A DNA stretch of 56,076 nt, counting the filler, from Sphacelaria rigidula (lineage: Eukaryota): the NCBI GenBank assembly GCA_964200075.2. It is 3 parts of 3 records of this genome, joined end to end, with 100 filler letters (N's around TTAATTAATTAA, not from the genome) between each part and the next. Parts side by side here need not be neighbours in the genome. Positions count along the whole stretch, not along the records: positions 1 to 18,634 come from CAXNAA020000823.1; 2 more parts are not named here. One strand, 5' to 3'. The notes under the pieces are model-generated. The model was not told the DNA's origin. It searched no databases and was given only the letters and a program-made list of their open reading frames with translations. This document shows, piece after piece, positions 3,221-36,374 of the stretch (position 1 is the first letter of the stretch; each line of letters starts with the position of its first letter). The translations under genes and the position numbers were made by a program.

Positions 3221-5788
3221 TCTCCGCTGTAAGTTTCGCGCATTTTTGTCCAGCTCACCCCCTACCCGACCGATTATAGTGAACCCAATCCCCTTTTATG
3301 TAGCCACGAGAGGCCGATTGTGAGATCAAATACGCGTGTGCTCAGGCGCTCGACAGTTGGTGGCAAGAGCGGCTGTAAACCAAGGAATCTCTACATTTTC
3401 ATCGGCCGGTGGCACGTCCTATACATTATCCCCGTGATACCGTTCTTTCCTACGATTTTTTTCTAACTGGATCCACATCTTCCCAAAGGAAAAAACGCTA
3501 AACTGGCTTTGCTCAGAGAATCAATTTGCACCTGTTCGGGTAAGACACGGCCTGGTATGTGACCCACTAGAAGGCGCAAGAGAGAAGAGGAATCACAATG
3601 CGGCTGACCCCATAAAATAGTGCTGCAGGTGCTGCTCGTCCTAGATTGTGCTGCTTTTTTACTTACTTTACGGTGGCGTAGGCGAGAAGTCGTAATCACT
3701 ATCAAGTGTCGTCGGTGCCCATCAAATTTCTTCCGACCTGCATCAGGGGGCTTCCTCCGTCCTGGCCGGTGTTGTACGTCAGTATGGATGGTGCGCTTGA
3801 GTGCTCCTCGGCTGTGGAAACAAATGATGCTGTGATGCGGAGCAGTAGTGATTTTTGGTCTATTTGTTGTGGTGAGGCATGTTTTATGGGGAGCAGGGCG
3901 ATTACGACAGGCCTGGATGCTGAGGCCGCGTCTTACTGGGACAAACATTGGTTTCGGATGACCATATTGCTGTTTACGCACGGTGATTGGTCGCCACAGT
4001 ACAACCCCCCAGGCAGTGTGCCCAACCCTCCGTGTGCGCCAAGCAGTTTCAAAAAGTCTTGTGAGGCCAGCTACGTCTATTTGAACGTTTTGAGACGAGT
4101 TTGTGCACACACAGTCGGTTCGAAGGAAAATACAAAGAGATCGATCGCAGGCGCGCATACTGACGGGTTTGCTCGAGGGAGGACACTAATATGTTACACC
4201 CGTACCACCGCTACGCCTTGACTTCATCTCCTCTTTTGTTTGCTCGTTTTTTGCTTTTTTTTGTTTCTTTTCCCGCGTTTCTTTCGCTCTTCTGCGCTTT
4301 TTCTGCGCCCTTTTTTATTTTCTGCGCCTCCCGCCCCTTTTCCGCCATTTCTGTTTTTCGACCCCTTCAATTATTTTTCGGCACTGAATTTCTTTCGGCC
4401 GCTCATATTGAAAAATACGATCCTGCCGCACATTTCTTCCGCGTATCTCATGTTTCGCATATATGTTTCGGCGACATCTTTTACACGTGTTGTGTTTCTA
4501 GTCTTGTTGTTGTTGTTGTCTTCACATTAAAAGCCGTTCCGATATCTGCGCGGTACATTGGTACTGGGCATCTTATGCNNNNNNNNNNCACAGGCTAGCA
4601 GAAGAAACCAAAATAAAATAAAATAGATCCAGAGTGAAAAACTCACAAGACGCGTCTTGTACCAGGACAAAATGCCACATGATCCATGGAGAGAAATGTA
4701 TACATCTCAAGTATCAGTCACGCCGTGCTGTGGAACTCGCCATGAACTTCGCATTCTGAACAAACAGTTCCCTCCCACAACATGAATAAAATCGAAAAAC
4801 TAGAACAAATAGATAGCGACAGATCGCCCGAACTTGATGACTGAGCACATCGACACTTGGAAAACCAACGACGCGACCCTCGCTGCCCGTGCTTGAAAAA
4901 AAGATAACACCGACGTGCTCCCTTCGACCTTTACTCTTGTTTATATCCTCTCCCTCGTCATCATCGCTAAAATTGACGAGCGGATGTGCTCTTGTCCTTG
5001 AACTCTCCATATGTGTGTCGTGTGCGCTGTAGTGTGTGCGTGTGCGTGCGGACTGCTGTATATTATATGTTGCTGCTGTGCAGCTGCAGATGGTAAAATG
5101 AGAAGGTCCGAGAGTCCGCGACGCAGCGACGAACGCGCGCGCTGAGGTTCCGCACACAAAACGACCCCCCAGCGGTTGAAGCTATTGCCGAGACGAGGCT
5201 CCCCACGTGGTCCCCGTCCCCTACCATAGTACTAGCCTGGCTTAATGTTTGACGTGAAGCGTAAACGTGTAACGTGTAACGTGTAGGACCCTGAAAGGAG
5301 TAGGTCTGTCTGTCTGCAGGTTTTCCGCCCGGGGAAACCGCAAGTCTGCGCTGTCCTACTGCTAATCTGCTCCAGGCAACCCCAATTATGCTCTATCCTC
5401 TCTAGAGTCTACCGTATTTTCTGAAAATCTGCAACATCTTTTTGGTTTCCTACTGTCTTTTTTCACGGCCGTTTTTCTGCACAATAAAATGGCATTCTGT
5501 TTTTTCCACGGCCGCAGAAGGAGTCAAGGCCTAACCACCACCACCAAATATGAACTGGAGAGCCCCACTAGCCCCGCCTGAACCAAACCGTGTTCGCTCG
5601 AGCGGAAGGTGTTATCATCAACTGAGTGCAATCTACGCGCTCCGGGTCGAATCTCTATCAATTATTTCACGATGCAAAAATTGTGTCAGACGCGGGTCGA
5701 GAATACGTACAAAAGCGATCAACAGCGGTTCTTTTTCGTTTATGAAGCCACACGCGCGGCCGCCCTTCCTCCTGCACTGAAGACGTTC

Positions 5789-7628: not shown

Positions 7629-7926
7629 GTAATAGTCCGACTACCGCCATAAGGGTGGAGAGAACGGGGGTTCGATTCCCGATGCGTTCGGTGTTTTTCT
7701 TCGTAATGCATAATTTCCACCGTGGAAAGCGTGAGAACGTGAGTAAGCAAAGTAGTAGACGACTGGGTTTGTGTGACGTGAGTTGACGCGGTGCGGGAGT
7801 GCTGATCTAATCCGCGAGATCAAAATGAAAGGCACGTACCGCGGGAGAGATGGGTTGATCCCTTGAGACCACGGGCTCATCCCGAGGAAGGGAAGGGGTT
7901 CAAAGTCTGAGGAAAAAATGAAAAAA
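7629..7926 (+). mobile_element. tRNA-derived SINE, 5'-clipped copy
   Basis: Near-identical to 9068-9372, with B-box GGTTCGATTCC and an A-rich 3' end. Confidence 0.85.
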
Positions 7927-9067
7927 GAGAAGCCCCCCCAACCACGTAACCAGTGCACGCGGAACGGTGCGTCCCGTCGGCTGTCAAACGAGGTTGCCCG
8001 TAGTAAGGTGCCCGTGAAGGGCGGCCATTTACGGCAGGGAATCACAACTGGTGGGATGTCCTCCAGACTTGCGTCAAGCCAAACCAAGGGTCGAAGAGTC
8101 CTTCAACCCTCAAGTGCGTGTATCAATCACACCGTTGCACGTGTCCCACATCGCGCGGAGGATCGATCTGGAGCATTGACTTTCAGCCTTACCTACATTG
8201 GCTGGGATACCGCCTCACTGGTGGAGTGTTTCTGTTTGTATCTATCCCAACGATCAACTCTACAGCAGTAGACATGTACAGGTACGTGACAATCAACTCT
8301 CTACAGCAGTGAATGTTTACGAAGGAGTCCATGCCCACGTCGGGATTTTATTTGGCCTACATCGCGGTTTTTTGGATGCTTCCCGAGAAGAAACAATGTG
8401 TCATTTTCCAGAAGCGTCGCTGGGGATTTCGCGGTGTCATGATCGTTTGTCATGCAGTACCGCACAGATTCGGCTTGTATTGCACTGAATTGCGCCACCC
8501 AGCATCCTGGGCATGTGCACAGGGGTGGAAACAACTGTATGGTACGTTTGAGCTTACCGTTGGTGAGGTGAAGCCCTTGAGATTGAAAGCTACCTCTGAT
8601 GGAAGCACGCGCCAAGAGAATTTTGACGCTTGCGCGACAATTTATCCTGGTGAACGAATTGCTACATATCTCGGAGCATAAAGCGCGAGGCTCTTCGCTC
8701 TTTTTGTTACACCGGCGACGAATTCCCCGAGTGTATCGGCATGGGCCAATGGCCTCTGCGTACTGCTTAGCATTATGGCCATTGCCTGATTCTCGCTGCG
8801 AACCGCCTCCCAACGAACGCTACGACAGAAAACTGAGGGGTGGTTTTACTTGGTCAAAGTCTGATTTCCTCCTTGCCATCAGCACGGGGTGATGCTACGG
8901 TAGGGGTTGCACGTTTTTCAGCGAAAACGTTTCGCGGGGCTGCTCGGGATGTTGGGCGGGTCATTTTGTTGAAAAATACTGAAAGTGATGCCGATTCACG
9001 AAACGACCCCTGCGGGCAAACGCCATGTTTCTGGGAGTCCGGTCCCCGGGATTTGCGTTGTACAGTT

Positions 9068-9372
9068 GCCGCGCCCCGGTGGTGTAATGGTCCGACTACC
9101 GCCATAAGGGTGGAGAGAACGGGGGTTCGATTCCCGATGCGTTCGGTGTTTTTCTTCGTAATGCATAATTTCCACCGTGGAAAGCGTGAAAACGTGAGTA
9201 AGCAAAGTAGTAGACGACTGGGTTTGTGTGACGTGAGTTGACGCGGTGCGGGAGTGCTGATCCAATCCGTGAGACCAAAANNNNNNNNNNGGGGAGAGAT
9301 GGGTTGATCCCTTGAGACCACGGACGCATCCCGAGGAAGGGGAGGGGTTCAAAGCGTGAGGAAAAAAAGAAG
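9068..9372 (+). mobile_element. tRNA-derived SINE, full length (~300 bp)
   Basis: Head GCCGCGCCCCGGTGGTGTAATGG (A-box) ... GGTTCGATTCC (B-box), a non-tRNA body and an A-rich tail. Other copies start at 7629, 14399 and 25582. Confidence 0.88.
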
Positions 9373-10073
9373 AATAAAGTAGTAAGTCCCATATACTTGT
9401 GCTCCTACAAGAGGGAGAGCCCCAGAAACAGAAACTGCAAGCCCAACCGTAGCATTGCTCTACGCATGGTTCTGGATGTACAGCTGGCCAAACTCGATAC
9501 GCACATCATGCCGTAGGACCTCGATCTGAAGCTCTAAACGATAATGTGTCATGCCTGCCATGTGATCAGCTAAGGGGTTTTGGCCAACTCTACAGCGTTT
9601 TTAACACATATTGTGAAGATGGGTAGACTGTAGGTGGATGCCCATTTTGTCAATGTTTTACTGACGATATACATACAGGGCATTGCACTCTGTCTGTACA
9701 GTAGTACCAACCTGTGAAGTACTGGCTAGCTCTGACCTCAGGCGATACGTTCTCTGCTGAATGTGATTATTTTTTGTCACCCACCGGAGCGTAAGATTAT
9801 CTACTCTAGTACGCTGAGGTGTGTGTTTAGACAGGATACTATTTTGATGAGGTTCAAACTTCAGCCGCTGTGCGCCGTTCTCAGAGAGTTTGCCGACCAG
9901 TGTACCGACTGTAGAAACTATCCCGATCGTGCTGTATCGCTGTCGTGACACAAGGCTGACCTCAGCCCCACTAACACCTCCCGAATTGACCCGACACTGC
10001 GTCCCCAATAACTCCACCGGACTCCTGGTGGTTCAGGTAATTTTGTCCCTACCAGAAGTGGTTAGCCCCGACA

Positions 10074-14398: not shown

Positions 14399-15057
14399 GC
14401 CGCGCCCCGGTGGTGTAATGGTCCGTCTGTCGCCATTAGGGTGGAGAGAACGAGGCTTGAGTCATGCCCCATTAGGACGGGGGGGTGCTTGGTTTCACGA
14501 ACAAAGCGGGTTCATGGATGCTTCAGACGACCTAACACACTCGCTGTGCACTTGTAAGCGATGTCAAGCAGTATGAATGAGTGTTATTCACCAGAAGCAA
14601 GCGTGTTCGAACAACTATTGCTGCTGTCAACGACGTGGAAGGAAACACCCCCAATACCCCCGCCTCCTGTCGTACCATGCCTCGCTCTGATTCCCAATGC
14701 GTTGGGTTTTTCCTTCGTTGTATCTGATTTTCCACCCTGGAAAGCGTGAGAAGGTGAGTAAACAAAGCGTTGACTGAGTATTGACGAGAGTTGACGCGGT
14801 GCGGGAGTGCTGATGGTCATGATCCAATCCGCGAGACCGAAATGCAAGGCGTGTGTACGGGGGGGGGGCGTACTCATTTGTTGCTTGCCTTAGTCATTCG
14901 ACCATTGACCACGCATCCCTTTCGAGACGGAGCACCGTTCCTACTCCTAATAGAGAGCGTGTGTACGGGGGAGAGAGGGGTTGATCCCTTGAGTCCACGG
15001 ACTCATCCCGAGGAAGGAGAGGGGTTCAACGCGCGAAAAAATAGATTAAAAAAAAAA
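14399..15057 (+). mobile_element. SINE copy interrupted by two nested insertions
   Basis: SINE head 14399-14455, a ~230-bp insert in the B-box region, body resuming ~14688, a second insert at 14859-14956, then the SINE 3' end and A tail. Confidence 0.85.
14859..14956 (-). mobile_element. Oligo(C)-tailed retroposon-like fragment, family A
   Basis: G-run plus CGTACTCATTTGTTGCTTGCC..., flanked by the direct repeat GCGTGTGTACGGGGG (14849-14863 and 14957-14971). It is absent from the paralogous SINE copies. Confidence 0.85.
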
Positions 15058-15810
15058 GAGTACAGTTTGGTGTGAGTACAACTGAACGCCCGAGACACCC
15101 CTTTCGCGAATCGTCCTGTATGTTCCCCTTTCTGTCCGGCTCCTGAGACAGGCTGTACTGGTGGCTAATGTAGCGCACGAGAAACGCTTCCCCCACATAT
15201 ATGTAGACCTTGACAGTAGGTCGCGTTGTTGTACCCAACCTGGTGCACGGGATACACGTGTACCTCACGCCGATCCTACACCTCATATTCGCATGCATGG
15301 CAAAGAATATACCACGCCGTAGCTGTCTGGAGCTAGAGTGGTAGCACAAAAGCCATCTGCTAACTTGCGGGTGTCTGTAGTACAGAGCATACGATTCTAT
15401 TCTACCAGTGCGTCCGATCGAACGCATTTGTACATCTCGGTTGATTGATCATAGTGTGCTGTTTCACAGACGTGCCATGACTCCTGCCGTGGTGTCCGAG
15501 AAGGAGGGTAATCTGTCTACAAAAAAAGTATGTAAACAGGGGCTGCGAGCAACATTTGAGTAAAGAGAGAATGACGGTACCCCGAAAAATCTACACGGGT
15601 CTCCGAATCGGAATTCGCAGCAAAAGGAAAGCCCCCTCGCGGTGATCCTAGTGTCACTACTCCTTTCCCTTTGTAGACTTATACGCGATGTGTGCTATCG
15701 CGGCGATCGATCTTGCTCGTGTTACAGTGGGCTAGCACTAGCGATTCAGTTATGCCCTGCTGACCTGTCAGGAGCCCATGGCTGTCAACAGGCCGTTTAG
15801 GGCAAGTGAT

Positions 15811-18570: not shown

Positions 18571-18634
18571 GGGGGGTGTACTCATGATCATGCATGCCAT
18601 AGTCATATGACCATTGACCTCGCATCCCTACAAA
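18571..18634 (-). mobile_element. Oligo(C)-tailed retroposon-like fragment, family B (cut by scaffold end)
   Basis: GGGGGGTGTACTCATGATCATGCATGCCATAGTCAT..., with copies at 25975, 40497 and 53434. Confidence 0.8.
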
Positions 18635-18734
18635 NNNNNNNNNNNNNNNNNNNNNNNNNNNNNNNNNNNNNNNNNNNNTTAATTAATTAANNNNNNNNNN
18701 NNNNNNNNNNNNNNNNNNNNNNNNNNNNNNNNNN
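18635..18734. other. Artificial scaffold-joining spacer (N44-TTAATTAATTAA-N44)
   Basis: Exactly 100 nt. The core has stop codons in all six frames and is identical to the spacer at 37358. Confidence 0.97.
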
Positions 18735-18780
18735 CACTTCCAGAGACAGCCACGGCTTTTACACTGCCTCATGGGTGTCA
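18735..18780 (-). mobile_element. Short dispersed repeat (retroposon 3' end)
   Basis: CACTTCCAGAGACAGCCACGGCTT..CCTCATGGGTGTC also occurs at 27860-27904 and, inverted, at 37301-37357. Confidence 0.8.
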
Positions 18781-19065
18781 GGGGGGGTGGGGGGGGGGGG
18801 GGTAGTGGAGTTCCCGATCATCCCCAATTTTACTCCCCGTCATTTTCCGCTCGAAGTTGCGGAAAAAAATTGAGAACAAAATTGGGCAATATATATGAAA
18901 ATACATAATATACTCTTCAATTTTGAATCCGTACTGCGGTAAGTGATCAGCCCCAAGACGTCATTATTGACACGTCATCAAATGAGGGCTGGCAGTGAGT
19001 GTGGAACCTTCAGATGACGAACCACCCTCGTGTCTCCAAAATTCTCGATGGAGAGAAATACCCGC

Positions 19066-19226
19066 CTGAGCGCTAGGTCCGTCGCGACACCGCACAGATG
19101 CTTTGCCACTGCCACGACAGGTCTCTGCTCCCCCTCGGCACTGGTCAGGGACGGAAGACCCGCCATGTTGAGATCTCGTATGTCTATCCGAGCTCTTACG
19201 GTAGCCCCGTCTAGCTTCTTGTCCGC
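19066..19226 (-). CDS. TRM13: tRNA:m4X modification enzyme TRM13, exon (ADKKL...RIDIRDL...AKHLCGVATDLALR)
   Basis: Carries the hallmark KHLCGxATDLxLR motif. Acceptor ttgcatag, phase 0. The donor is either AG|gcgggt (19066) or CGG|gtattt (19062). Downstream exons are lost at the scaffold end. Confidence 0.92.
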
Positions 19227-19443
19227 CTATGCAAACACGTTGAGAAAAATCGCGGATTAATGGCAGCTCAATTTTAAGCAGTCGTATTCCATCATTCAGC
19301 TCCTACCCTCTGGAAACGCCCCACATAATCCGTAGTATCGAGCAAGCACTGGAATAGTACCGGTTGAAGCACAAATCCGCCGATAGCATGAGTAAAATAC
19401 GCATGACCTCACTTAGACGCCACGTCACACCTCCTACGTGATA

Positions 19444-20568
19444 CAGGCTGGTTCAGATTGAATACCCAATATTCATTCCCCGGCTGATGACGAACGCAAT
19501 ACCCAGCCAATATGCACAATTGTGGTATCATACTGACCGCGATGGACAGACAAAAAGGCTGACATAGCCAGATTTTTGTTTAGGGCTATAGCGGTGGCGC
19601 TGTGGACAAAAGTATGTCTCGACCAATCAGCGCCCTTCAAATTGTTCCGAAATTGAAAACATGAATTCCAAGCCTAATTCCCACCGAATCTCCACATTGT
19701 TCAAACCATAGTAACCGTCATCAGCTTGGTAATCTAACGGGAGAAACAGAGTTGAAAACGGTTCCAACGGGGTCGAACTTTGCCCGAAACCGTTATGTTT
19801 CGGTGATGTGGAGCTTTGGTGTCGTCTAGTTTCCAATCGTGATACGTACGAAAGACCCACGGAGCCTCATGACGATTTCCCTTTTATCTTTTGAAGAAAA
19901 GCTCAGATCATCCTCAAACTTGGCCGTTCCGTAGGTATTGATGCTCCAAAAGTGAAAATGGTATTCTTGGCAAGGTTTCAAAGTTTCTCCGTTCTGTACC
20001 GGCTTCCGGGGGTCCCAGCATAAAGGCTCCCGGAAACCGGTACAGAATGCCTCAACACCAAAAGTTTGACATCTTACGGTTTTAGGTGGTATCCCAAGAA
20101 ACATGTGTATCAATTCTCGTCGCTCAACTCGCCAAACTGAATCGGCTGGGTCTTTAACCGTAAAAACAACCCTCAAAAAAGGCGATTCTGTACTTTAATC
20201 AAGTAATTAGGGGGGCACGCAGACTTCAGCGCACGTTTTGGCATTTTCTCACGCTGTTTTTTCGAGTTAGATCACGAAAATTTGCTCGGGTTCTGGAGGG
20301 CACTATCTAAAACTCGAAGACCGTTTTTTTTCATTTCTTTTTTCATGTTGGTGGCTTTTAATCCAAGGTCGCGGTTGACCTACTTGACCGGGGAAGGAGT
20401 CAGGTTCCGACTATCTCGACACCAAAACCCAAAATAAAACCCCCCGGTCTTCGAGTTTTAGATAGTGCCTTCAAGAACATGTGTGCAATTTTTCGTGGTC
20501 TAACTCGAAAAAACGGCGTGAGGAAATACCGGGAAATAAATTGGGGGTATTCAATCTGAACCAGCTCG
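19444..20568 (-). mobile_element. Non-autonomous TIR DNA transposon, ~1.12 kb (TA target, Tc1/mariner-like)
   Basis: TIR CAGGCTGGTTCAGATTGAATACCC / GGGTATTCAATCTGAACCAGCTCG with TA on the left. It is colinear with the inverted copy at 26272-27392 and contains internal inverted repeats. Confidence 0.88.
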
Positions 20569-21206
20569 TGTCTTCCGGCGCATCAAAATAGCACATAAAT
20601 GTTCAGAACAAGCGCGATGCCGGGCAAATTTTCAAGCCCCATCGATCAAAATCGAAGAACCGCGCTGTCAGCTTTGTGCCTGATCCGTGTGTGAAACGCG
20701 CATGCAGGGAAGTGTTAAGAATCCGAACATTCCGGCCATGTAACGGCCAGGACTGGAAGCGCCTCTCCTGCACGAGAAGAACACTACGAACCGACTGCTT
20801 TACTATCCCCACCGCGGCCGTAGAGCTTTTCCGAAGACAGCACACTACTCAGCTGAACAGCATTCGCCCTCTTTCACCTACATATGACTCGAACCTACAT
20901 CGCGAATATGTCGATGTCAAATGAGTGACAACTATTGTGACGTTCCAAAACAAAACAGCAGTGGTTCGCTCGGTATTAAACTCCGCGCAAAAACCGAGTA
21001 AAACGCGGGTGACCTCGAAAAAACACTCAGAATGGCGCGCTGTGTCCAATTTTGAAGCAGAACGAGATTGCGCTATGAACCCCTGCTCACATTTCTTCCG
21101 GCAGAAAATCTTTTCTCACGGGGTGCTTCGCCGATTGTACAACACCTGCGTTCAACTCCCGATTCTACTTTCCGTAAGGCGGGATATTCGGCTCTTCAAT
21201 GCGTAC

Positions 21207-21342
21207 CTTATGTCTCACAGAAGAACGTTCCACCATGGTGATCGCCGACCCTGGAAATGCGGTTGAGATGGCTTGTCCTAAGGCACCCTTTCCCGCGCCC
21301 ATCTCTACGTGCAATGTGCCGGACCCTGGCCCTACGAGCCCC
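21207..21342 (-). CDS. TRM13: TRM13 exon with SAM-binding motif I (VEMGAGKG...MVERSSVRHK)
   Basis: Acceptor ctttcttccag in phase 2 and donor AAG|gtacgc. It joins the next exon as RHK-ADK. Confidence 0.93.
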
Positions 21343-22508
21343 CTGGAAGAAAGCGTCAGAAACGCGTACAAACTATCACATTAAAAAATCATAGATCAGT
21401 GCACGAAAAAGCAAAAATGAACCTGGAAACGCAAAGCAAATCCCAGGAACCCCAGCCCCAGTTTCTGAAGACATCGACGCACTAGCGTGTTGGAGGTCAG
21501 GAACACGCTAGCGTGTCAATGCCTTCAGGCCTGAGTGGACTCACAACCCCAACTTGGGCTCACAGTCGCACGCTCAACTCACACACTTCCTCCCGTATAG
21601 TCAAAAGCCCCACGAGAAAGAGAGTTCGACAAGCGTATTACAGCTAGCTCGAATGCCCAACATACCTGATACCCAAGTCTACTGTACTGTTGAGGTACTC
21701 AAAAATGCGCAACACTCTCCACCAGTCTTGAGGGGTAGGATCCTCGTCGTGACGCGGTGTAGGCCTCACTGCGTCGGCGATGTACGCGCATCATGTTGCA
21801 CATGTGCAAAATAAAGGAAGGTGTCGATTGGGAAATTTCACCCACGGAATGCAATAAAGGCTGATTTGCTTCACCGGTAAGCAGATTTCACCGACTAGTT
21901 TTGTGTTAGTTTCTGTAACGGGGCTTGTAATTTCTCTCCTAGGAGCCGAGCCCCCCTTCCGCTTGCTCCGCCAATTTTTGAGCAAACCATGGATTTCTCA
22001 AGGTCCAGGTAGCGCCCAGGCATTGAATGTTTGTTTTGGCGGGGGGAGGGGCAATAAGGAATTCTTCGAGTTTTGATTCCGAGCCAAACGTGGACTTGTC
22101 ACAGCCTAGGCAGCATTCAGGCATCATTTTGTTTGGTGGGAAATCAGTCACTACAACTGCGACAGGATGGGAAACAACGGCGGACCGCGCAGGACCCCCG
22201 CCAGCACCGCCAGCACCGCCACAAACGAGAGACTGAAGGTTGGGTTCCAGAGAGTAAAGAAGATCGCACGAGAGCATGGACAACACTGACAAGCCAGCGC
22301 CGACTACGGCAAAGCGACGATGTAGCGCTTTCTCTGATACATCGTCGCGACAACGGTTCAAAGAACATCACACGGACCGCTGAGAATGGATGACACAAAC
22401 GGCAACATTCTCTGACCAGTACGTTTCCGATAAAGCCGAAGCGTTGGAAATCTTGAGCACCTGCAGCAGTGTTGTTCAACGTGTTTCACCACTTAGGAGA
22501 AGACTCGC

Positions 22509-22592
22509 CTTTTGAGCATGTGTCCCAAGATGGAGGCCTGCTGTAGGACATGTCTTCCCTTGCGGAAGCCGGTGCCTCCCTCCAGGCTGGCC
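22509..22592 (-). CDS. TRM13: TRM13 exon (ASLEGGTGFRKGRHVLQQASILGHMLKR)
   Basis: Conserved HxxQQASILGHM motif, 84 nt, phase 2-2, GC donor AG|gcgagt. Confidence 0.92.
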
Positions 22593-22832
22593 CTGGCCAT
22601 CAATAACGCAACATCGCAATACCCGCGTACGAAACAAGATTTCGAGTGCAATATCATCCAAGACCCTCATCTCTAAACTTTCCGTGGAGAACATTACTTG
22701 CATGGTGGATTTCAAAATTTAGGAACCGTGCTTGCAATATTTGTGTGAACAGTACCGCATCTTTTTTGTGCGTACAATTATGAAATATCAAATTTTGTCG
22801 CGACAAAAGCAGTTTTTCAAAGGTTCTTAAGG

Positions 22833-24095
22833 TAGAGTACATATCCCGGGGTAGCCGAGATTTCCAGGGTATTTCAACTGCACAGTACTCCAGGGAACGA
22901 ATGGTATCGACATCCGAAAATAATCACTACTGCAAGTTACGAACTGCGTAAATTACAGGGTACTCCAGGGCATGCAAGGTATCGACTGCAAAAGTACTGG
23001 GTACCACAGGGAACCTCGGATATTCGCCGCCCGAACCACTCGATGGAGCACAAGGAGTACTGAGTACAAGCACTGATACTCCGGGTACACAGGGTATCGA
23101 TTGCTGAAGGTACTGAGTGCCCCACGGTGCCTTGGGTGCCGGCCCCCTACATTTCCGGGGTGGTACCTGGGGTGCTCAGTACAAGTGCCGAGTACTACGA
23201 GTATCCAGGGCATCACCCGCCAAGAATACTCAGTACCTCCTTTTATCCGGGGTATCGATCACCGAATGAACGGAGTACCTCACGGCACCCACGCTATCGA
23301 TACCCCACAATACCCAGTATTCCAAGGTACGTACAGTACCCATGCTAGACAATAACTTGATAAATGCACTTACAGTACACGCAACGCAACGGGACACATA
23401 AAAAAAGCTGATATTGTTTTCGGGGGAAGCAATACTGCGAGTCCTAATCAATCACGCTTCAGCAGACAAAAGCAAGCCACCCCCTTCCTCTTCCACGTAT
23501 TACAACCGATTCAACGAACCCACAAGGTTTGTACAAATATTTCTCAGTGTTCAGTAGACCGCACGCGACACCCACGAAAGGTGCATGGGGAGGGGTGCGA
23601 ACCGTGGGGTATCCCGGATTTTCGGGTTAATGGAACACCCAGTGCTCCAGGGTACGAATGCGTGGAAGACCAATCCCCCGATGGTATGCAGCGGATCAAC
23701 TGCCGAATGGATGGGGTACGTCAACACCTCGTGCACCCGCCTCCCGAGGTACCTGGTCTAGTACTCGGAGTACTGAGTACAAGTATCGAGTACTCCGGGT
23801 GCTCGGGGCACCACTAGTCGAGTATACAGTACTCGGTGTTAACCGGGTACCTAGGGTATTGAGCGTCAACAACACTCAGTATTTCAGGGTTCTCAGGTGT
23901 TGACCTTCCTCTTGTGTGACCCCGGCTGGTGCGCCCACATACACCGAAAGGTGTAGACCGGCGCCCAGAATTGATGGGACGACAGCACACACTCAGGGTA
24001 ACAACAGTTCCAAATATTCAGTGTTCGAGAGTATCAAGGGTATCGATGTCCCACAGTACCCTAAATTGTACCCTACCTACGCTGAGCACCTTTAA
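22833..24095. repeat. Two blocks of degenerate GTAC/AGTACT-rich repeat (about 22833-23345 and 23600-24095)
   Basis: Very dense GTACT, GGTACC and GTATCGA words. The two blocks share alignable segments (e.g. TGCTCAGTACAAGTGCCGAGTACT vs TACTGAGTACAAGTATCGAGTACT). Boundaries are approximate. Confidence 0.65.
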
Positions 24096-24571
24096 AGAAT
24101 TTGGATGGGAGTGAGGCATACTTGAGTCGCTGTCCCTTCAACGAACAAGCGTCAACGCAACCAAGAGAAACTCAAACTATTCCTGACACAGTAGCGCGCC
24201 GTCACGCCCGGAATGAATTTTCACGCACGGACCACTGTTCCCCGCCAAAAGGCTAAGCGCCAAAAAAATCGGTGGACCCCCTTTTTGTTCCCAGGGTATC
24301 CACATCAACCGGGCCATCGCATAACCGTTGAAACGCAACGGGTGAGCAATCGGACGAACCGACAAACACAAGACGGACCAGCGGGGACTATTTTGACTCT
24401 TCATCCATGATGTTCCTTCTTCTCCAGCTCCATGGTACACAACCACATGGTGATTCATTACTCCTGAGTCAACCAGAACCACGAAGCACGGCCACCTGTC
24501 CATCCGATAATAGCTACATTCACTGCTTGGTCGTTCAAAAGGCTGCGTTTGTGGTCATGTGAGGTACTCGC

Positions 24572-24681
24572 CGGTGCAATGGTTGAACCTCTGGAGGGTC
24601 CAGCACCTCCGTGGGCAGGTGGCCAACGTGCTCAGCGTGAGCGACGGCCACACGGGCTATGAGGTCCCGCACAAACGCCTC
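24572..24681 (-). CDS. TRM13: TRM13 exon (EAFVRDLIARVAVAHAEHVGHLPTEVLDPPEVQPLHR)
   Basis: Acceptor ggacag in phase 0. The GC donor CG|gcgagt is needed for the phase-2 join to 22592. Confidence 0.85.
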
Positions 24682-24981
24682 CTGTCCGACGACGAAAATA
24701 TACCAACCAAGCAAGATAAAAAGAAAAATGGATTCACATATTACGTTTCCCGAACCCAATGGACTGGAAATTCCTCTGTGCGACCGAAGAAGCACAGCTC
24801 CAAGAGTCTCCACAGCTAGATATATGCCATGTACGTAGCACTCACCATCAAAGGGCATGCCGACCTACAAGCGAAGCCTTTACAGACACACACATACACT
24901 CACAGCCTTCGGACACATCAGCCAGACGGTCAAAAACGCATTTGAAAGCGAAAAGATATGCAGCAACCACAACTCGCTTAC

Positions 24982-25137
24982 GTCGAGCGGAGCAGTGTTG
25001 CCCGCAGGTTCTCGGTATCCGTCAGTCCTTTCGTCTCCTTCGTCTTCAGCGGGAGGCAAAGGTGGTCCAGAGTTTATGTTCTTGGAGTAGTACGGCTGCT
25101 GCTCTAGCTCTTTCGACTGTCGCGTTCTATTGCAAAT
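24982..25137 (-). CDS. TRM13: TRM13 exon (ICNRTRQ...PYYSKNINSG...)
   Basis: Acceptor ctttccag and donor GAC|gtaagc. It completes the CHHC finger (HLK-IC) and has the YxxxIN[SA]G motif. Confidence 0.92.
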
Positions 25138-25284
25138 CTGGAAAGATAAAGGACACCCGGCGGGGGACAATGTCCTCGAGTATGGAATGGAAGCGGGCGC
25201 CTAAGGTGAGCACTGTCATGTGGGGGGTGAGAGCAGCAGTCTTGACAGAGAATTTGCGGCAGCGAATGGAGCCATAGATACAAT

Positions 25285-25582
25285 TTCTTTTTTACCATAC
25301 TGTCAACCTCTTTCTTTATTCGGGACGCGTCCGCAGCCTCAAGGGGATCAACACATCTCTTCCCCCGTATCTGCCTGATATGTTGAAATCAAGCATTGGA
25401 TTATGACTCCTGCACTCCGTCGACTTTAGTGGTATATTCCCGCTACTCACACCTTCACGCCTGCAACGACGAAAAACAGATCCTGCTGAGAAAAAAAATG
25501 GATATGATAGGATTCGAAAGCGTGACCTTCCGCCCTCAATGACCGTTGGTGTGCCATTTAATTTAGACCACCGGGGTGCGGC
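25285..25582 (-). mobile_element. Diverged full-length tRNA-derived SINE in a TRM13 intron
   Basis: Head GCCGCACCCCGGTGGTCTAA...TTCGAATCC. The 3' body TACGGGGGAAGAGATGTGTTGATCCCCTTGAG..GGACGCGTCCCGA aligns with the 9068 family. Confidence 0.75.
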
Positions 25583-25730
25583 GGAACATTTGTAGTTTAA
25601 GGCGTTTCCTCACAGTTCCGTTGAATTGAGCTTGGCGTAAAACAAAGCAAGAACAACTCGCGAAAAAATGCTCTCATGACTGTAGAAAATATTGATGCAC
25701 ATGAGTACGGCCTCGAACAAGAGAACGTAC

Positions 25731-25848
25731 CTTCAGGTGAGATTCGAGCCGATTTTCGGAGACCGTGTGATTGGGGTTCAGCGGACACGGTACCCTCTTG
25801 CCCTCGCCTGTTGAATGTGTAACGCAAAATTCAGAGTCCCTGGACATC
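25731..25848 (-). CDS. TRM13: TRM13 exon with zinc-finger residues (FCVTH...RVPCPLNPNHTVSENRLESHLK)
   Basis: Matches the TRM13 RxPCPLxPxHTVxxxxLxxHLKxC CHHC finger. Acceptor ctgacag in phase 2 and donor AAG|gtacgt. The upstream exon was not located. Confidence 0.93.
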
Positions 25849-25974
25849 CTGTCAGCAGTAGCCGAGAAATTAACGAACCATGCGGTAGTAGGCAAGCACT
25901 CGAATGTTTGCGGAGGTGCGGAAGGCGTCGGCAAATGTCATGTCGAGATGATGGAGGAGAGGGGGGGAGGGAGA

Positions 25975-26078
25975 GGGGGGGGGGTGTACTCATGATCATG
26001 CATGCCATAGTCATAAGACCGGTGACCTCGGACGGAGCACGCCGGGTTTTCGCCGGACCAGGCTCGCACTAATCACCA
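25975..26078 (-). mobile_element. Oligo(C)-tailed retroposon-like fragment, family B
   Basis: G-run plus TGTACTCATGATCATGCATGCC...GGACGGAGCACGCCGGGTTTTCGCCGGACC. Confidence 0.8.
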
Positions 26079-26174
26079 AGTGTTCGACGAGTCGCATGGA
26101 GGTTTAGCTGCATCCTGCTAAGATTGTTCGATCCGAAGCCTTCTGATTATCTTGCATTTGGATGTCAGCCTACA

Positions 26175-26248
<74 letters not shown>

Positions 26249-26271
26249 TAATAAAAATATTATTATTATTA
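26175..26271. repeat. (ATT)n microsatellite, left part
   Basis: Read directly from the sequence. It continues at 27393-27471 beyond the inserted TIR element. Confidence 0.95.
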
Positions 26272-27392
26272 CAAGCTGGTTCAGATTGAACGCCCAAAAT
26301 TCATTCCCCGGGATTTCCTCCCGCCGTTTTTTCGAGGTAGACCACGAAAATTCGCACACATGTTCTTGAGGGCACTATCTAAAATTCGAAAACCGATTTT
26401 TTCAATTATTTTTGTTCGTGTCGAGGTAGTCGGGATCTGACCTCTCCTCCGGTCAAGTAGGTCAACCGCGACCTTGGATAAAAAGCCACCAACGAAGAAA
26501 AATATAGAACCCAGGTCTTCGAGTTTTAGATAGTGCCCTCCAGAACATATGTGCAAATTTTCGTGGTCTAACTCGAAAAAACGGCGTGAGGAAATGCCAA
26601 AACGTGCGCTGAAGTATAAGAAAGTCTGTAATTACTTGATTCAAGTACAGAATCGTCCTTTTGGGGGGCTGTTTTTACGGTAAAAGAGACAGCTGATTCA
26701 GTTTTGCGAGTTGAGCAATGCAAATTGGTACACATGTTCCTTGGGATACCACCTGACCCTGAAATGTCCAAATTTTGGTGTTGGGGCATTCTGTGCCGGT
26801 TTCCTGGGGTCTTCATGCTGGGACCCCCGGAAGCCGGTACAGAACGGAGAAACTTTGAAACCTTGCCAAGAATATAATTTATCTATTTGGAGCATCAATA
26901 CCTGCGGAACTGCCAAGTTTGAGGATGATCTGAGCTTTTCTCCAACAGATAAATGGGAAATCGTCTCGAGGCTCCGTGGGTCTTTCGTACGTATCATGAG
27001 TGGAAATTAGATGACGCCAAAGCTACACATCACCGAAACATGACGGTTTTGGGCAAAATTCGACCCCGTTGGAATCGTTTTCAACTCTGTTTCTCCCGTT
27101 AGATTCCCAAGCTGATGGCGGTTACTACGATTTGAACCATGTGGAGATTCGGTGGAAATTGGGCTTGGAATCCGTGTTTTCAATTTCGGAACAATTTGAA
27201 AGGTGTTGATTGGTCTAGATATATTTTTGTCCATAGCGCCACCGCTATAGCCCTAAACAAAAATCCGGCTATGTTACCCTTTTCGTCCGTTCATTGCGGT
27301 CAGTATGATACCACATTTGTGCATATTGGCTGGGTATTGCGTTCGTCACTAGCCGGGAAATAAATTTTGGGTATTCTATCTGAACCAGCTTG
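26272..27392 (+). mobile_element. Non-autonomous TIR DNA transposon, ~1.12 kb, second copy
   Basis: TA|CAAGCTGGTTCAGAT...ATCTGAACCAGCTTG|TA, inserted in an (ATT)n tract and in opposite orientation to 19444-20568. Confidence 0.92.
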
Positions 27393-27406
27393 TATTATTA
27401 TTATTG

Positions 27407-27471
<65 letters not shown>
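27393..27471. repeat. (ATT)n microsatellite, right part
   Basis: Read directly from the sequence. Confidence 0.95.
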
Positions 27472-27838
27472 TCCGCACATTAGTCCGATCTCTCGAATCC
27501 GTGGTCACAGGCATAGGCTCGTCTTTCCAATACAGTCCCTGCTATTCCTAACAAGACATAGAGTCCCCCATCATTTTTTTCAGAGACTCTGGCCTAATTA
27601 CGTGACCAAGCGCAATTACCTCAAATATTACCAAAATGAAAATAAGAAGAGAGACGCCAAGAAAAACATGAGAAGTAGCTTCCCCGAGTTCAACGGGGTG
27701 AAAAACAAAACCCCGTCAGATCTGCTAAGAAAAGCACACCGACAGAAAAGGAACTTTAAAGAAAAGACATAAAAAAAAAGACAAATGACACAAAGGGATT
27801 CGCAAGGCCACCGGGCGGGGGGCAACTCGAAATTGAGT

Positions 27839-27904
27839 TTCTTCAATTTGTGGTATCGCCACTTCCAGAGACAGCCACGGCTTATACGCCGCCTCATGGG
27901 TGTC
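27839..27904 (-). mobile_element. Short retroposon 3' end (…GGAAGTGGCGATACCACAAATTGAAGAA)
   Basis: Same family as 18735 and 37301, with a GAA-type tail. Confidence 0.75.
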
Positions 27905-28869
27905 TCGCGATTCAAATACTGCGTACTACGATCATCCTGATTGTGTGGAGTTGAGGTTCTCCCGCGCCGCACAACATGATCTAGCTCGACTACCATCATG
28001 GTTACCGCAAAAAAAACCCCGCAAGCGCGCAGAACAAAATCGGTGTCCTGCTTGCCTAGTTTACGCAGTGAGGGGCATGTTTTACAGGGTCATCGCCGAC
28101 CGACGCCAAGCTCATCGGGGGTTCGCCCCTACAAAGCCGGGACGGAGCACGCCGGGTCCTCGCCGGACCAGGGGAGGGAGAGGGGAGGGAGAAAGGGTTA
28201 GGCCACTTGTTGCACATAGTGACCACTTTGAAGCACGGTTGCAAGCAGCAAATTTTATTTGGATACTCGTGGTATCAGCAAAAACCATGCATCCGCGATG
28301 CTTCAAAATGGCCCTACTCACGTTTAGTACAAGCCCCACGACGGGAGTATGGCGTTGTGATAACACACTCATGTTTTTTTTTTCTGCAGTGCAACCAACC
28401 ACTCTCCCTCCCCATACTAGGATCAGTATGTGTTACCCTAGTACGTGAGCAACGCGCACTCAAATATCGGAAATACAAAGTACTCACAAGTTGACTTGTA
28501 TTGATGATTCCAGGTATTGACCGTCAGATCTGAGAGATCGAACTCACTTCAAAATAAGCGATTTCCTCAACGTTTGAAAAACGCCGGGAAAAAGAGTGGG
28601 GGGGGGGGGGGGAGGGGAGGCGGGCTTGGCGTGGGCGGGCTTGATAACAATCTGTGCCAACCACCTGATTCTCGTCTTGGTATGGGCTCAAGGATAATTT
28701 GCGGTATGGTGGAGGTGAAAGTTTGTGGATTCGTCCTGTGAAACTACGGGAAATGCAAATGGAAAAAAACGTCGGGTAAGAAAGTGACCGTGGTTCATTT
28801 TGCTTCGGTCATTCCTAGTGTCCGTTCTCCCACGCGACGCCTTCCTTCATCGAGGATCTGCTTGCCCTT

Positions 28870-28945
28870 GGGGGGGGGCGTACTCATTTGTTGCTTGCCT
28901 TAGTCGTTTGACCATTGACCACGCATCCCTTTCGAGACGGAGCAG
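28870..28945 (-). mobile_element. Oligo(C)-tailed retroposon-like fragment, family A
   Basis: Flanked by the 16-bp direct repeat TGCTTGCCCTTGGGGG (28859-28874 and 28946-28961). It is shorter than the 14859 copy at the end opposite the tail. Confidence 0.88.
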
Positions 28946-29199
28946 TGCTTGCCCTTGGGGGCGAGAATTTATGCGGCACTGCTAAGACGCACCCCGCAGC
29001 AAACACGGCGCCTAACCGCGGCATACATGTGAGAAAACAAAACGGTTTCTCACTTAATTGTACCCGAAAGCGGGTTGTAGGCGGGGGACTGGCGATACCA
29101 ACTCTATATCAAATGGATGTTCTTCCACATGTTTAATGCCGAGCTCCCCTCGCCTGTTGTCAGTTTTCACTTTGTCGAAAAAATAGGCACGGGGATATG

Positions 29200-30065
29200 T
29201 GAGTGCAGAAAGTACCAATTTTGCAACGTTAAAAGGATAGAAATGTTACCCCAGATGGCTCTGGATTTTGTACTCCAAAGGACGTGGAGCATCGTTCGCC
29301 GAACATTTGAGTATTCCGGAGCATTCGACAAATCAATCCGTTCCAAGCGCTGAGTATTCCAGAGTACCTGAGGTACAGACTCCTCCACAGGGCTGAGTAT
29401 TGCAGAGAATCTAGAGTCCCGACCGTTGAAAATACTGAGTACTCTAGAGTACTCACTCAGGTCCTGAGGATTTCAGATTACCTGGGGAATCGACTACAGA
29501 AAATATGGAGTACTCTAGGATACTCCAGGGTACTCCAGGGTACCTGGCCCTCAGCTGGAAACATGAAGTATTCCGGTGTTTTCTGGAGTACGCGCCTCGT
29601 ACACTGGACGATAACCTTCACTGGGTACAGTACAGTGGACATACTGTGGATATAGATACACATCAAGCCACAGCCCAACTAGTTGATCGTTTAATCTTCA
29701 ACCTTGAACTTTCGGTACGACTATGCCAAACTCACATATACTCCACGACGTGGAATATTTCAGGTGTACTCACGATAGAGAGTACAATGCTCCAGGTACT
29801 CGAGGTTTCTAGAGTATTTTTTAGTACCCAGCACTCCGTATTACCTCAAGTATTAATGCATATAAATTACCGAGTGTGTCAGAGTAACTTGAGTATCAAC
29901 CACCAAAAATGCTGGATATTGCAGAGTACCCAGAGTACTCGACTTCTGGAAATACTGAATATTCTTGAAGACCACGAGTGTTGAGTCATTCAAAGCACGG
30001 AGTACTCTAGAGTACCTGGAGTATCGACACCCCATGATTCCCGTACTGGACCTCTGCTTGATTCT
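29200..30065. repeat. Degenerate GAGTACTC/CTAGAG-rich repeat block
   Basis: Dense GAGTACTCT, CCAGAGTAC and CTCCAGGGTAC words, of the same type as 22833-24095. Boundaries are approximate. Confidence 0.65.
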
Positions 30066-30915
30066 GAGCAACTAGGAATTGGAATTTTGCTTCAGAGTCG
30101 GCTAGTTGCGCAGTGGTTGCAGCGGCAGCTCATTGGCTTGTTCGGAACACGCTGCGGCCGACGGTGGCCTAGCGCCACATGACCCCAGCGTACCTCTCAC
30201 GACGGCGTGGCAGTAATCCCCAAACTGCAGGAACAAGCCATTCAGACCTGAAATTTGCCATGTTGAGCCCTGAAGACATTGCTAGCGAGCGCCCGCTGCG
30301 TAGGCGTTGCGCATACACCCTAGCATCACGCATCGTGAGACTGTTCTCACTCACATGTGGGTGCACATGGGACCCGTTATTTCTATTAGATGAGCCAGCA
30401 AATGACCGCAGGGATCTTTGTACGGCGACTCAGAACTGACGCGAGATTCGGCGATTTGTGGACACTCTACTGTAGCGTGATGCGTCTTCTTTTTCAAGCT
30501 CGCTTGCAATAACTGGCAAGATGAAGCATGTCGCACACAGAGGAGGAAGCTGGCATTGATCAAGGGGGGAGATGGTTTGTTAATAGGCTTCACTACACTG
30601 TGTACCCTCCTCACCTATGTTTCCACAGCGAATTGCGCACAGTACACATGAGCTGAACAGGAGATCATGAGGGAAGTGCAGTACAGATTTCATGTTAGGC
30701 GTGACAGTACGCACGGAGCTACTGAGTCGGCACCCCCGGAAGTAACGCTTACCAGCATGCCACAATAACCAATGAGCTTTTCAGTAAGCGCCCTGAGCTG
30801 TTCAGTTAGAGCTGACCGACCAACTTGGTGGCTATCGAAATCTTTCAGCTCGCCCCGTGCAGGGTCTCATGTGTATTTACTCTCACGGGGAAATCGAGGC
30901 ACAGGCGTTACCGTG

Positions 30916-31674
30916 CTATACAGTACAGGACAGCGCGACCCTGACACGGTAGGTAATAGGACGGGGCGTCCCACAGGTTGCGCACTTACCGGAATAACAA
31001 AGCATATTCCGATTGAAGAATAAGCCCTGGAGCACCCCAACATTTGCCAACCCCTTGGACGCGAGATCATTTTTCTCAACAATGTCGCTCGTAGAACACC
31101 GTGGACACTCAAGGAAGCAGGGAGCCAACATGGCAAACAATTCTGGATTCATCATGTCCACACCATGAAGTATTTGGCCTGAAAGACGTGCATTTTTATG
31201 CATGTTGTCTCAAAACATTGCCATAGCTTTGCAGTCGCGTGATGGCAATGAAACGCGCCAAACGCACCGATTCGCTCAGAACTCTTCGAGATCACTGATA
31301 ATATATGTTGTGACCATTCAAGTGGCCAACCCCGCGAGCAAAACCTTCTCGCATCATACAGCCATATTGAAAAGATGGTCCTTACGCTCCGCAGTGTACC
31401 GAAACTTGGGCTCGGTTTTCACGGGCTCATCGGATGTAGCTCTACTTTCTCTGAAGATTGTAATTTTTCTGACGTATCCTTGTTGGCTGCGGTTGCTGTA
31501 CTTTTCCTGCCCACGCGCTCTGACTGGAAAAAAGTGCGAGAGCAGCCCCATCGTTGCCTCGAAAAGGTGCAAGGGCACTGCAGATGGGGTATCGCCCAAA
31601 ATGAAATATTGCACGCGTTGTACGTCGTGATCTTTCGTTTTGCCCCAAGGCATCGGGGAGACAGACATCACCAA
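30916..31674 (-). pseudogene. Interrupted ORF remnant with a CxxC...CxxC zinc ribbon, probably transposon-derived
   Basis: CPRC...LASKGLANVGVLQGLFFNRNMLCYSGKCATC, preceded by protein-like frames broken by stops. The family was not identified. Confidence 0.3.
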
Positions 31675-32299
31675 TTTCTGTGCGTGAACAGTCGAAATGT
31701 GGGGACCACATATGTATCAGCTTAATGAACATGAGAATACATATGTAAGCCGGAGAAACCGTCTCAGGAACGGGGTCTGCCAGCGGCATGCATGAGCGGA
31801 CCCGAAACGTTCAAACATGTGAAACTGGATCTTTGGCAACCTAGGCAACAGAGTCGCCGGCAGAAAGAGCTCGGAGTCATGGGGCCGCCGCATGAACTCT
31901 GGTTGAACGTAGCCAGTACTGCCGTACATGCTCATTCACTTCTTATTCTTGCCTACCATCGGTCACAGAAATGGTTTTCAGAGGCGTGTTCTATCGATGT
32001 TCCGCGATTGTTTTCATGTAAGGTAGGACCGTTCGAAGGCATCAAATATGTGCCTCATCTATCTCCCCCCCCCCCCCCCCCCCCCCACCAAACAAAAAAA
32101 AAAAAAAAAAAAAAAAATCAGAAAAAAAAAAAAAAAAAAAAAAGACAAAAAAGCGNNNNNNNTTTTGAAGGGAGGACCGTTCGAAAGCATAAAAAATTTG
32201 CCTCTTCTTTTCCCCCCCCCCCCCCCCCCCACACACACAAGATATGTAAAAGGTTTCTGTGCAATGTATGGAAGAAACGTAGTGAGCGCCGGAATGTTG

Positions 32300-32402
32300 A
32301 AGGCGTCTCTACTAGGAGTAAGAACGGTGCTCCGTCTCGAAACGGATGCATGGTCAATGGTCAAACGACTGAAGCAAGTAACAAATGAGTACGCCTCCCC
32401 CC
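32300..32402 (+). mobile_element. Oligo(C)-tailed retroposon-like fragment, family A (sense orientation)
   Basis: ...GGTGCTCCGTCTCGAAACGGATGCATGGTCAATGGTCAAACGACTGAAGCAAGTAACAAATGAGTACGCCTCCCCC. Confidence 0.82.
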
Positions 32403-33278
32403 TTGTACAGGGATCTTTTTACACGACATCGCTTACCCTTTTCAGTGCAACCACGGCAGATTTCTTCGCGGTACCTCTTTCGAGTCCAGACTTTCAGACA
32501 TTGCTGTTGCTTTCCAAGAACATGGAGGCTTTTCAGGGATTATTTATTGTAAGGCGCGGGTTCCATTTAAAACGGCCATACTTTACGGCGTTAAATGTGC
32601 TCGGGTAAGAGGGACACACGTCCTCGGGAGACAGGTGTCCGCATCAGCACGGGAAGGCGGCGCTACGTACTCCTGTACCTCACTGGCAAAGGTGCCCGGA
32701 TGGCGACGGATGCACACGTCGGACAGATCTGCTCCCTGGAGCTCGAGCTACAGTAGTGGGCGGTCTAACTATTCATTTTGGGGAATTTTCTTGGGCTCTT
32801 TTCGCTTGCCACCGCTTATCACATCGGGGGTCTGAAAATATTTGTATCCGCTCCACATGCCAAGAAAAAAAAACCATCCGTACGCAGTATCAAGTGACAT
32901 ACGGGCTGACCGGTCATCGGGGGTCCTGCCACGTTTCAGCGCAGATTCTTCTTCTTCTGTATTTTCGGTCGAGGGAGCCCGTCCCGATTATATTTGTAAA
33001 GAGATGTACAGTTTCATTTTTTTGGAATTCTGCCTACTTATTGCACTAGGGCCGAAAAACTGTATTTCGCGGTCAATAACACCCTCCTGATGACCGGGGT
33101 ATTTACTCGTTTCGCCCGATATTACCAACAGGCACTGTGTTTCGAGAATCATCTGTTTTGTTGTACCAAAATCTACCGACGCTAGCAATTTTGACTTCTA
33201 TCGAAGAGAAGTACGCGAGGAAACCCCCAAAACACCCCTAAATACTTAGACCGCCCACTACTGTAGCTCTGTTCAAGC

Positions 33279-33510
33279 GTAGCTCCCTGGTGAGCTATGA
33301 GAGCTACGCATGTTCGCCCTTTTAATAGGTGAGCTACCAACCCGTAGCTCATCAGCTCATCTTCGCCCTGGGTGAGCTATGAGAGTTGAATGAGCTACGC
33401 ACAACTGCACTAGGTGAGCTTCCGGACGTAGCTCATCCGCGCATGTTTGCCTCGGGTAAGCTATATGAGCTACATGAGCTACGCATGTTTGCCCTGGTTG
33501 AGCTGAGAAG
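33279..33510. repeat. TGAGCTA-based ~42-bp minisatellite array 1 (5-6 units)
   Basis: Units begin GG-TGAGCT, and hairpin-type and direct-type monomers alternate. Confidence 0.85.
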
Positions 33511-33937
33511 CTTCGGGGACTACGCCGGTTTTGGAGTTGTTTCTGTTCCGATGCTCATGCACGTTGATACGTGAAAACAGTTGAATGTGTACACACCTGT
33601 GTTTCGTTTTGTGCGGCGATGGATTTGCTTCTTGTAAACATCAAGATGACTGTATCAGAAGCCACCCGCACCGTAGCCACCAAACCTGCCCACAACCACA
33701 CACGCACAACCAACCCTACATGGCGACCGCCGGGGGAGCAGCTCTAGCTGCGCTTCAGTCGGAAATGATGCCGTTGATCTGGATCCTCCTCGAAACGGGG
33801 TCGATGTGAAGGAAGAAGTGAACACACATACAATATTTGAGTGCTTGACCATTTGGTCGTGAGGGTGGACGATCTGTTGAATCGGCATCGTTCAGACCCG
33901 AAAAATGATATGAAGTATGCTGATCAAACAGATCGCC

Positions 33938-36322: not shown

Positions 36323-36374
36323 CGGAGGAGGGGGTGTACTCACGATCATGATCATGAGTACACCCCCTCCTCCG
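36323..36374. repeat. 52-bp near-perfect palindrome made from a family-B element end plus flank
   Basis: CGGAGGAGGGGGTGTACTCACGATCA-TGATCATGAGTACACCCCCTCCTCCG, with one mismatch. Confidence 0.9.

Follow-up and report, generated by a model that had tools for sequence, protein, structure and literature searches.

Family-A copies and their insertion sites

The window analysed here is a stretch of 56,076 nt from Sphacelaria rigidula (assembly GCA_964200075.2), made of three parts joined by filler letters. It contains four copies of a short repeat, family A, all of them at the places given by an earlier reading made without database searches (the sequence-only reading) and with one end fixed and the other varying from copy to copy, as described there. 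The fixed end is ...AACAAATGAGTACG(C)n in all four; on the G-run side, in the plus orientation of the window, CGTACTCATTTGTTGCTTGCC is found at the fixed end of each. None of the 137 ORFs of at least 100 aa in the window reached the curated Pfam cut-off and no reverse transcriptase (RT) was detected in it. Rfam gave nothing at gathering thresholds over the whole window, and permissive searches of 14600-15080 and 40440-40760 returned only chance-level matches (E 5-6).

The copy that we call A1 lies on the minus strand at 14869-14956. It is an 88-nt, 5'-truncated LINE 3' end, containing the final 27 residues of the ORF described below followed by TGA and GTACG (92.6% over 27 aa by tblastn), and is 99% identical to the long contig L001. 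A run of G10 (14859-14868) precedes it, of which the extra G5 at 14864-14868 is an oligo(C) tail on the sense (minus) strand of the element. An exact 15-bp direct repeat, GCGTGTGTACGGGGG, is found on the tail side (14849-14863) and again at the truncated end (14957-14971). A2, also on the minus strand (28879-28945), is a 67-nt LINE 3' end preceded by G9, and one non-consensus base at its truncated end is counted within the 67 nt. With its extra G4 tail it covers 28875-28945, and its target site duplication (TSD) is an exact 16-bp repeat, TGCTTGCCCTTGGGGG, at 28859-28874 on the tail side and 28946-28961 at the truncated end. Both duplications had been noted before, with their G5 ends, and are confirmed. 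As both end in G5, the G's at the junction beyond the duplication are five in A1 and four in A2.

A3 is located on the plus strand, opposite to the other three, at 32239-32393 (155 nt), reaching 32402 with its tail, CCTCCCCCC. Its identity is 85-88% to the other family-A copies and 85% to L001 and L002 (tblastn 74% over 50 aa), and it is an older LINE 3' end; no clear TSD was found at its flanks. A4 (minus strand, 40638 to about 40704; whole entry 40621-40704) is a LINE 3' end of about 67 nt with a G5AG11 tract before it. Its TSD, judged by eye, is imperfect (13 of 16 positions, 40491-40506 versus 40707-40722). Exact TSDs are found only in A1 and A2, those of A4 and of the family-B copies described below being G-rich or imperfect.

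A1 interrupts a dispersed repeat of about 290 bp (14660-15060, plus strand), SINE-like and with an A-rich end. The paralog at 7645-7935 is uninterrupted at the A1 site, where the alignment shows G3, and the paralogous fragment at 25305-25369 reads TACGGGGGAAGAGA across the site, with G5 there. A further paralog, at 9100-9385, has an N gap exactly at this position and is therefore uninformative about the insertion. The claim that this copy is a true insertion is borne out by the two uninterrupted paralogs. Its host is indeed a dispersed repeat, but the identification of this repeat as a SINE of the tRNA type found no support in ARAGORN (0 tRNA genes) or Rfam; its only features are a B-box-like motif and the A-rich end.

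The pre-integration G run could be resolved cleanly for the A1 and A2 insertions. It is G5 in the 3' TSD copies of both, in the fragment at 25305-25369 and in the empty allele of A2 (see below), and G3 in the paralog at 7645. Empty sites thus have G3-G5 and filled sites G10 (A1) or G9 (A2), and relative to an empty G5 the insertion adds 4-5 G.

Family B

All four family-A copies are real, but the list was not complete, since more relatives, family B, begin at 18577, 25985, 40507 and 53436 and a related palindrome is found at 36315. Three of these copies are on the minus strand. The one at 18577-18634 (entry 18571-18634) is cut by an assembly gap, that at 25985-26080 (entry 25975-26080) is internally deleted, with G10 ahead of its fixed end, and the one at 40507-40620 sits inside the G tract of A4 (entry 40496-40632), flanked by an 11-nt direct repeat, GGGGAGGGGGG, at 40496-40506 and 40622-40632. 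A family-B-like copy on the plus strand (53436-53494, to 53513 with its tail) ends in the C-rich tail CCCCCCGCCCCTCCCCTCC, and a distant relative at 28100-28172 (minus strand) shares with family B no more than the inner part of the terminal module. The identity between the two families is about 80% over about 70 nt. Family B retains the core GGGATGCGAGGTC.ATGGTC and the end CATGAGTACA(C)n; with a TAG just upstream in frame and a TGA out of frame, the module looks non-coding by eye. Family B would be either a related lineage or a non-autonomous derivative with the same terminal module. In all 10 tailed copies that we tabulated, the terminal GAGTAC(G/A) is followed directly by at least five C's, or by CCTCCCCCC in A3.

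The copies at 25985-26080 and 40507-40620 stop at the same point (...CACCAAG and ...CACCGAG). Most contigs of the sequencing runs described below extend past CACCAAG with CGCGAAGCGCC... (places 26068 and 26070), and the shared CACC(A/G)AG stop might reflect a hotspot of truncation or a short subfamily, or be a coincidence. The palindrome at 36315-36382 (68 nt) is made of two inverted family-B ends of about 14 nt with inverted G/C runs and flank, in two 34-nt arms that are 88% complementary with zero spacer. An aborted insertion with snap-back or twin priming could have produced it.

Long copies and their open reading frame

Scanning public metagenome contigs with the fixed-end pattern gave three loci, of which L001 and L002 are real and L003 is an unrelated chance match. 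Contigs of prokaryote MAGs were scanned for GACCATTGACCNCGCATCC and gave 76 loci; the sole real copy, L057, is on the same contig as L083, a eukaryotic contaminant of 5259 nt among the prokaryote MAG contigs. The other 75 have only a 19-23-nt motif in common, within a conserved bacterial coding region, and the three matches in viral contigs (3/3) were unrelated. By eye, in L004-L079 except L057 the conserved 19-20-nt core of the LINE is identical to part of a conserved bacterial coding region, which reads ...MGCVVNGPGE... on the opposite strand, a match that we take to be a codon coincidence.

In L001, L002 and L083 the family-A end follows G8, G10 and G13, respectively, and its identity to A1 over the shared end is 96-99% for L001 and L083 and 95% for L002 (L001 and L002 are 80% identical over 2984 nt). 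All three run 3-4 kb past this end as one ORF on the strand opposite to the G-run. In L001 and L002 the ORF, on the minus strand, has at least 1006 aa, a length bounded by the flank taken, and ends ...AACAAATGA-GTACG-(C)n. In L083 the open frame is 1382 aa long and free of internal stops, 1333 aa of it counted from the first ATG, and C13 follows. The final codons are ...AGC AAC AAA TGA, then come GTACG and the C-run, so that the 3' UTR consists of the 5 nt between TGA and C-run. In the ORF of the element Pfam identified a reverse transcriptase (RVT_1; E 5e-33 in P0001 and 6.5e-31 in P0002), and also in P0003, P0004 and P0010. The database protein P0003, 90% identical to the L001 ORF, has RVT_1 together with an N-terminal Exo_endo_phos (APE) domain (E 3e-12) and Exo_endo_phos_2, and the L083 ORF matches it with 88% identity over residues 1-1360 with no stop. 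Among PDB structures the RT matched R2 (E 2e-22) and L1 ORF2p (E 3e-21), equally weakly, and its atlas neighbours bear only generic names.

The four window copies (65-155 nt) and the three contigs of at least 3 kb all end at GAGTACG(C)n and differ in their 5' ends, and the window copies translate in frame into the C-terminus of the ORF. In L001, L002 and L083 alike the ORF ends 5 nt ahead of the C-run; the C-run end is therefore the 3' end, and the orientation proposed before, with truncation at the 5' side, was right. Since the long contigs continue as an ORF with APE and RT, the window copies are severely 5'-truncated LINE 3' ends. The sequence-only reading had taken them for an undescribed system, a separate retroposon family of about 100 bp, and this has to be abandoned, as each copy is just the final stretch (65-155 nt) of the coding sequence of an ordinary LINE. 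It had also suggested extending the longest copies towards 5' in search of an RT/endonuclease ORF, and the 1333-aa ORF with APE and RT is of this kind. RT, APE, a fixed 3' end with variable 5' truncation and variable TSDs with a single-copy empty site are all found here, as in APE-type LINEs. L001, L002 and L083 come from other assemblies; that the same full-length LINE is present in the genome of the window would rest on the 96-99% identity of the ends and on contigs of the sequencing runs that continue into CCGTTCCTA (see below). In G001 there is a single family-A copy.

On the 5' side of L083 no TSD was found (there is no shared word of at least 8 nt between the 3' flank and positions 4151-5259) and no G-run of at least 5, and the 5' end may lie beyond the 5259-nt contig. 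No second ORF of at least 70 aa was found on its sense strand. A diverged family-A-like 3' module lies in inverted orientation at 4740-4800, some 550 nt upstream of where the ORF starts; it would be either an earlier insertion beside the element or part of a 5' UTR that is complementary to the 3' end of the element itself. Positions 5100-5259 contain a tandem unit of about 65 nt.

Conservation of the 3' coding end

We compared the codons of L001 and L002 along the ORF. Over the last 33 codons the codon was the same at 27 of the 27 identical residues, while in the other 30 windows of at most 33 codons this value was between 43 and 79%. The result comes from a single pair of copies, and recent recombination of the 3' end could be its source. 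Distant protein relatives also end ...GCVVNG.... RNAalifold predicted a small hairpin (GGUC-NNNN-GACU core), with compensatory changes in 0 of 11 pairs. The synonymous identity, the presence of the module in family B and the ...GCVVNG... end of the distant relatives suggest a probable role in cis for the last ~100 nt of the ORF, as the RT recognition site. With a 3' UTR of only 5 nt, such a signal would have to be embedded in the end of the ORF. Conservation of the 3' end beyond the coding need, shared with the apparently non-coding family B, is what is expected of LINEs of the stringent type. The element is a LINE with essentially no 3' UTR, in which the cis signal seems to overlap the coding end.

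Polymorphism and arrays in sequencing runs

Logan contigs of four runs (X1, X3, X4 and X5) were aligned to positions 18735-37357 of the window. A 3520-nt contig of X3 spans 28156-28858 and 28946-31765 without a break and represents an empty allele of A2. It lacks exactly 87 nt of the A2 site, that is, one TSD copy, the G4 and the 67-nt element, and has G5 where the filled site has G9. In X1, contigs break off within A2, at 28894 and 28922, as a site occupied by the repeat would lead one to expect. This polymorphic insertion suggests recent activity of the family.

The same alignments also gave hints on the genome as a whole. Loose contig ends before 28870 with a G-run as consensus numbered 954 in X1, 833 in X3, 162 in X4 and 463 in X5 (these figures are contig counts, not copies, and depth is not convertible to copy number); at 28870 they show a long G-run and then no consensus. 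Past the truncation point of A2 the consensus of the loose ends begins with CCGTTCCTA, the next bases of the LINE, so that longer copies are present in these samples. Joints from 28944 to 28870 appeared in 54, 46, 3 and 26 contigs of X1, X3, X4 and X5, and other contigs join 28944 to the start of family B. These joints represent short copies arranged head to tail with G-runs between them. One such nest is present in the window, namely the family-B copy inside the G tract of A4.

A model for insertion at G-tracts

Family A very probably represents the 3'-terminal part of an autonomous, APE-type LINE from a brown-alga-like genome, inserted by target-primed reverse transcription with its C-run at a G-tract. 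Target-primed reverse transcription had been proposed from the start, and the fixed 3' end, the variable 5' ends, the exact TSDs and the comparison of empty with filled sites all agree with it. The same can be said of the G-tract as target, as the TSDs end in a G-run and the filled sites gain 4-5 G over the empty G5. In the process that we envisage, the endonuclease would nick the target strand within a short G-tract or just 3' of it (G5^A in one of the clean cases and G5^C in the other), and the 3'-OH of the tract would pair with the C-run at the 3' end of the RNA and prime cDNA synthesis. Synthesis would mostly abort after 65-155 nt, which is the truncation observed, and a second nick 15-16 nt away would generate the observed TSD. 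Either the endonuclease or the pairing step would select the G-tracts. Each insertion would leave a longer G-run, that is, a new and better target, which would lead to nested and head-to-tail arrays.

The RNA itself would end in oligo(C), which fits every junction. A fuller account, to which we give even chances, is that a brown-alga LINE lineage has exchanged the A/T pairing of tail and target for C/G. Its oligo(C) RNA, either templated by the C-run of a master copy or extended after transcription, would be primed by a nicked G-tract, with the RT signal in the last ~100 nt of the ORF, and the element would seed its own targets, nested arrays and much of the G/C homopolymer load. The logic would be that of L1, with C/G in place of A/T. 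Such an element would test, in a natural setting, how far primer-tail pairing and not endonuclease specificity determines where LINEs insert.

The main live rival is an RNA with no oligo(C), in which the RT adds non-templated G's to the target 3'-OH before copying ...GAGUACG, or the primer slips on the target G-tract. At the DNA level, G's added to the primer without a template would look just like the product of a C-tailed RNA, no more than 4-5 G are extra in A1 and A2, the two young copies, and an excerpt of (PMC8857657) presents non-templated extension by non-LTR RTs as a studied activity. We still find this unlikely, since L001, L002 and L083 hold C8, C10 and C13 as part of the element, so that a read-through transcript would contain the C's, and since the added bases are uniformly G and tail and target are complementary, as in A-tailed LINEs. 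It is far less credible that all the G's come from the target, a tail-less element inserting only into pre-existing long G-runs. Many copies are indeed found within long G-rich tracts, but the empty sites of A1 and A2 have only G3-G5 against G10 and G9 when filled.

Equally hard to believe is that family A is a short, SINE-like non-autonomous retroposon that borrows the tail of a LINE. The four window copies do not exceed 155 nt, and the stop point shared by two family-B copies might be read in the same sense. However, family A runs collinearly with the C-terminus of the LINE, in its reading frame and with varying 5' ends, neither Rfam nor ARAGORN detected a Pol III-type head in family A, and family B extends past CACCAAG in most contigs. 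The G-run at a sharply fixed end would also fit the 5' end of a capped RNA with cap-dependent, non-templated G's and variable 3' priming, to which we attach practically no probability. This reading is refuted by the orientation of the ORF in L001, L002 and L083, which reads toward the G/C-run and stops 5 nt before it; besides, it is on the variable side that the long copies go on for 3-4 kb.

Comparison with known LINEs

The closest named relatives are 'unnamed protein product' ORFs of Ectocarpus sp. CCAP 1310/34 (e.g. P0006, 55% to P0001), with an RT ORF and the same C-terminal module, ...NAPS.RG.VVNG.TAK(A), which places the element in a brown-alga LINE lineage. The comparison was made at the protein level (identity at most 55%). 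LINEs of the L1 type are described in an excerpt of (PMC3747384) as having a poly(A) tail, a T-rich nick site and 'relaxed' 3' recognition. Like them, our element has APE and RT, is inserted by target-primed reverse transcription, is often truncated at the 5' end and has TSDs that vary around 15 bp and a tail complementary to the primer strand at the nick, a likeness of architecture and insertion anatomy. It differs in the C tail and G-tract target, where the L1 clade has poly(A) and a T-rich site, in the 5-nt 3' UTR, and in having no second sense ORF of at least 70 aa (in L083). Its conserved 3' coding end suggests sequence-specific recognition in place of the 'relaxed' one.

The 'stringent' LINEs listed in the same excerpt end in 3' repeats other than A, such as (TGTAA)n in UnaL2, (TAA)n in the I element and (TTG)n in plant RTE (PMC3747384). 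They are similar to our element in the non-poly(A) tail and in a conserved 3' end that is probably needed in cis, here shared with the apparently non-coding family B. They differ in that here a C homopolymer replaces the 3-5-nt unit and the recognition region would lie inside the ORF and not in the 3' UTR. Zorro3 of Candida albicans, according to the extract of (PMC3956500), integrates at poly-A tracts, without TSDs and with poly-A on both sides. Like Zorro3, the family-A LINE enters a homopolymer tract that matches its own tail, but it uses C/G and not A/T and has exact TSDs of 15-16 bp. Among the full-text papers covered, which include few from subscription journals and do not extend to Repbase or Dfam, there is no account of a LINE tailed with poly-C or oligo-C or targeting poly-G, and those on brown-alga LINEs or G homopolymers contain no description of a C-tailed LINE. 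Taken together, family A is not a new kind of element but an ordinary LINE with APE and RT, unusual in its C tail and its landing in G-runs.

G/C homopolymers and other C-tailed repeats

The 56-kb window has 23 runs of G or C of at least 8. Four of them adjoin ends of family A or B and two adjoin another C-tailed repeat. The idea that these insertions seed the many G/C homopolymers of the genome is supported in part, by these 4 of 23 runs and by the hundreds of contigs with G-runs. With the element, a concrete source is at hand for the long homopolymers at which assemblies of this genome break, and in repeat annotation of brown algae we would expect thousands of coding-derived LINE stubs of 60-160 nt beside G-runs.

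Nine of the 23 runs, with the G-run on the left, directly precede CG, and three of these nine are family A; the CG-abutting runs may be other C-tailed families. At 38069 the sequence G8-CGTAACTTTGTTCG resembles the family-A end. Another short repeat is found on the plus strand in two copies (32020-32086 and 32168-32230), 87.5% identical and ending in C22 and C19. Between them there is an A-rich tract of 63 nt, and A3 follows directly downstream of the second. This pair suggests that there are further retroposon families here with C-run tails. The joins of the window (18635-18734 and 37358-37457) have the form N44-TTAATTAATTAA-N44 and both lie beside repeat copies, namely the family-B end at 18634 and a 45-nt repeat at 18735-18779 and 37302-37346.
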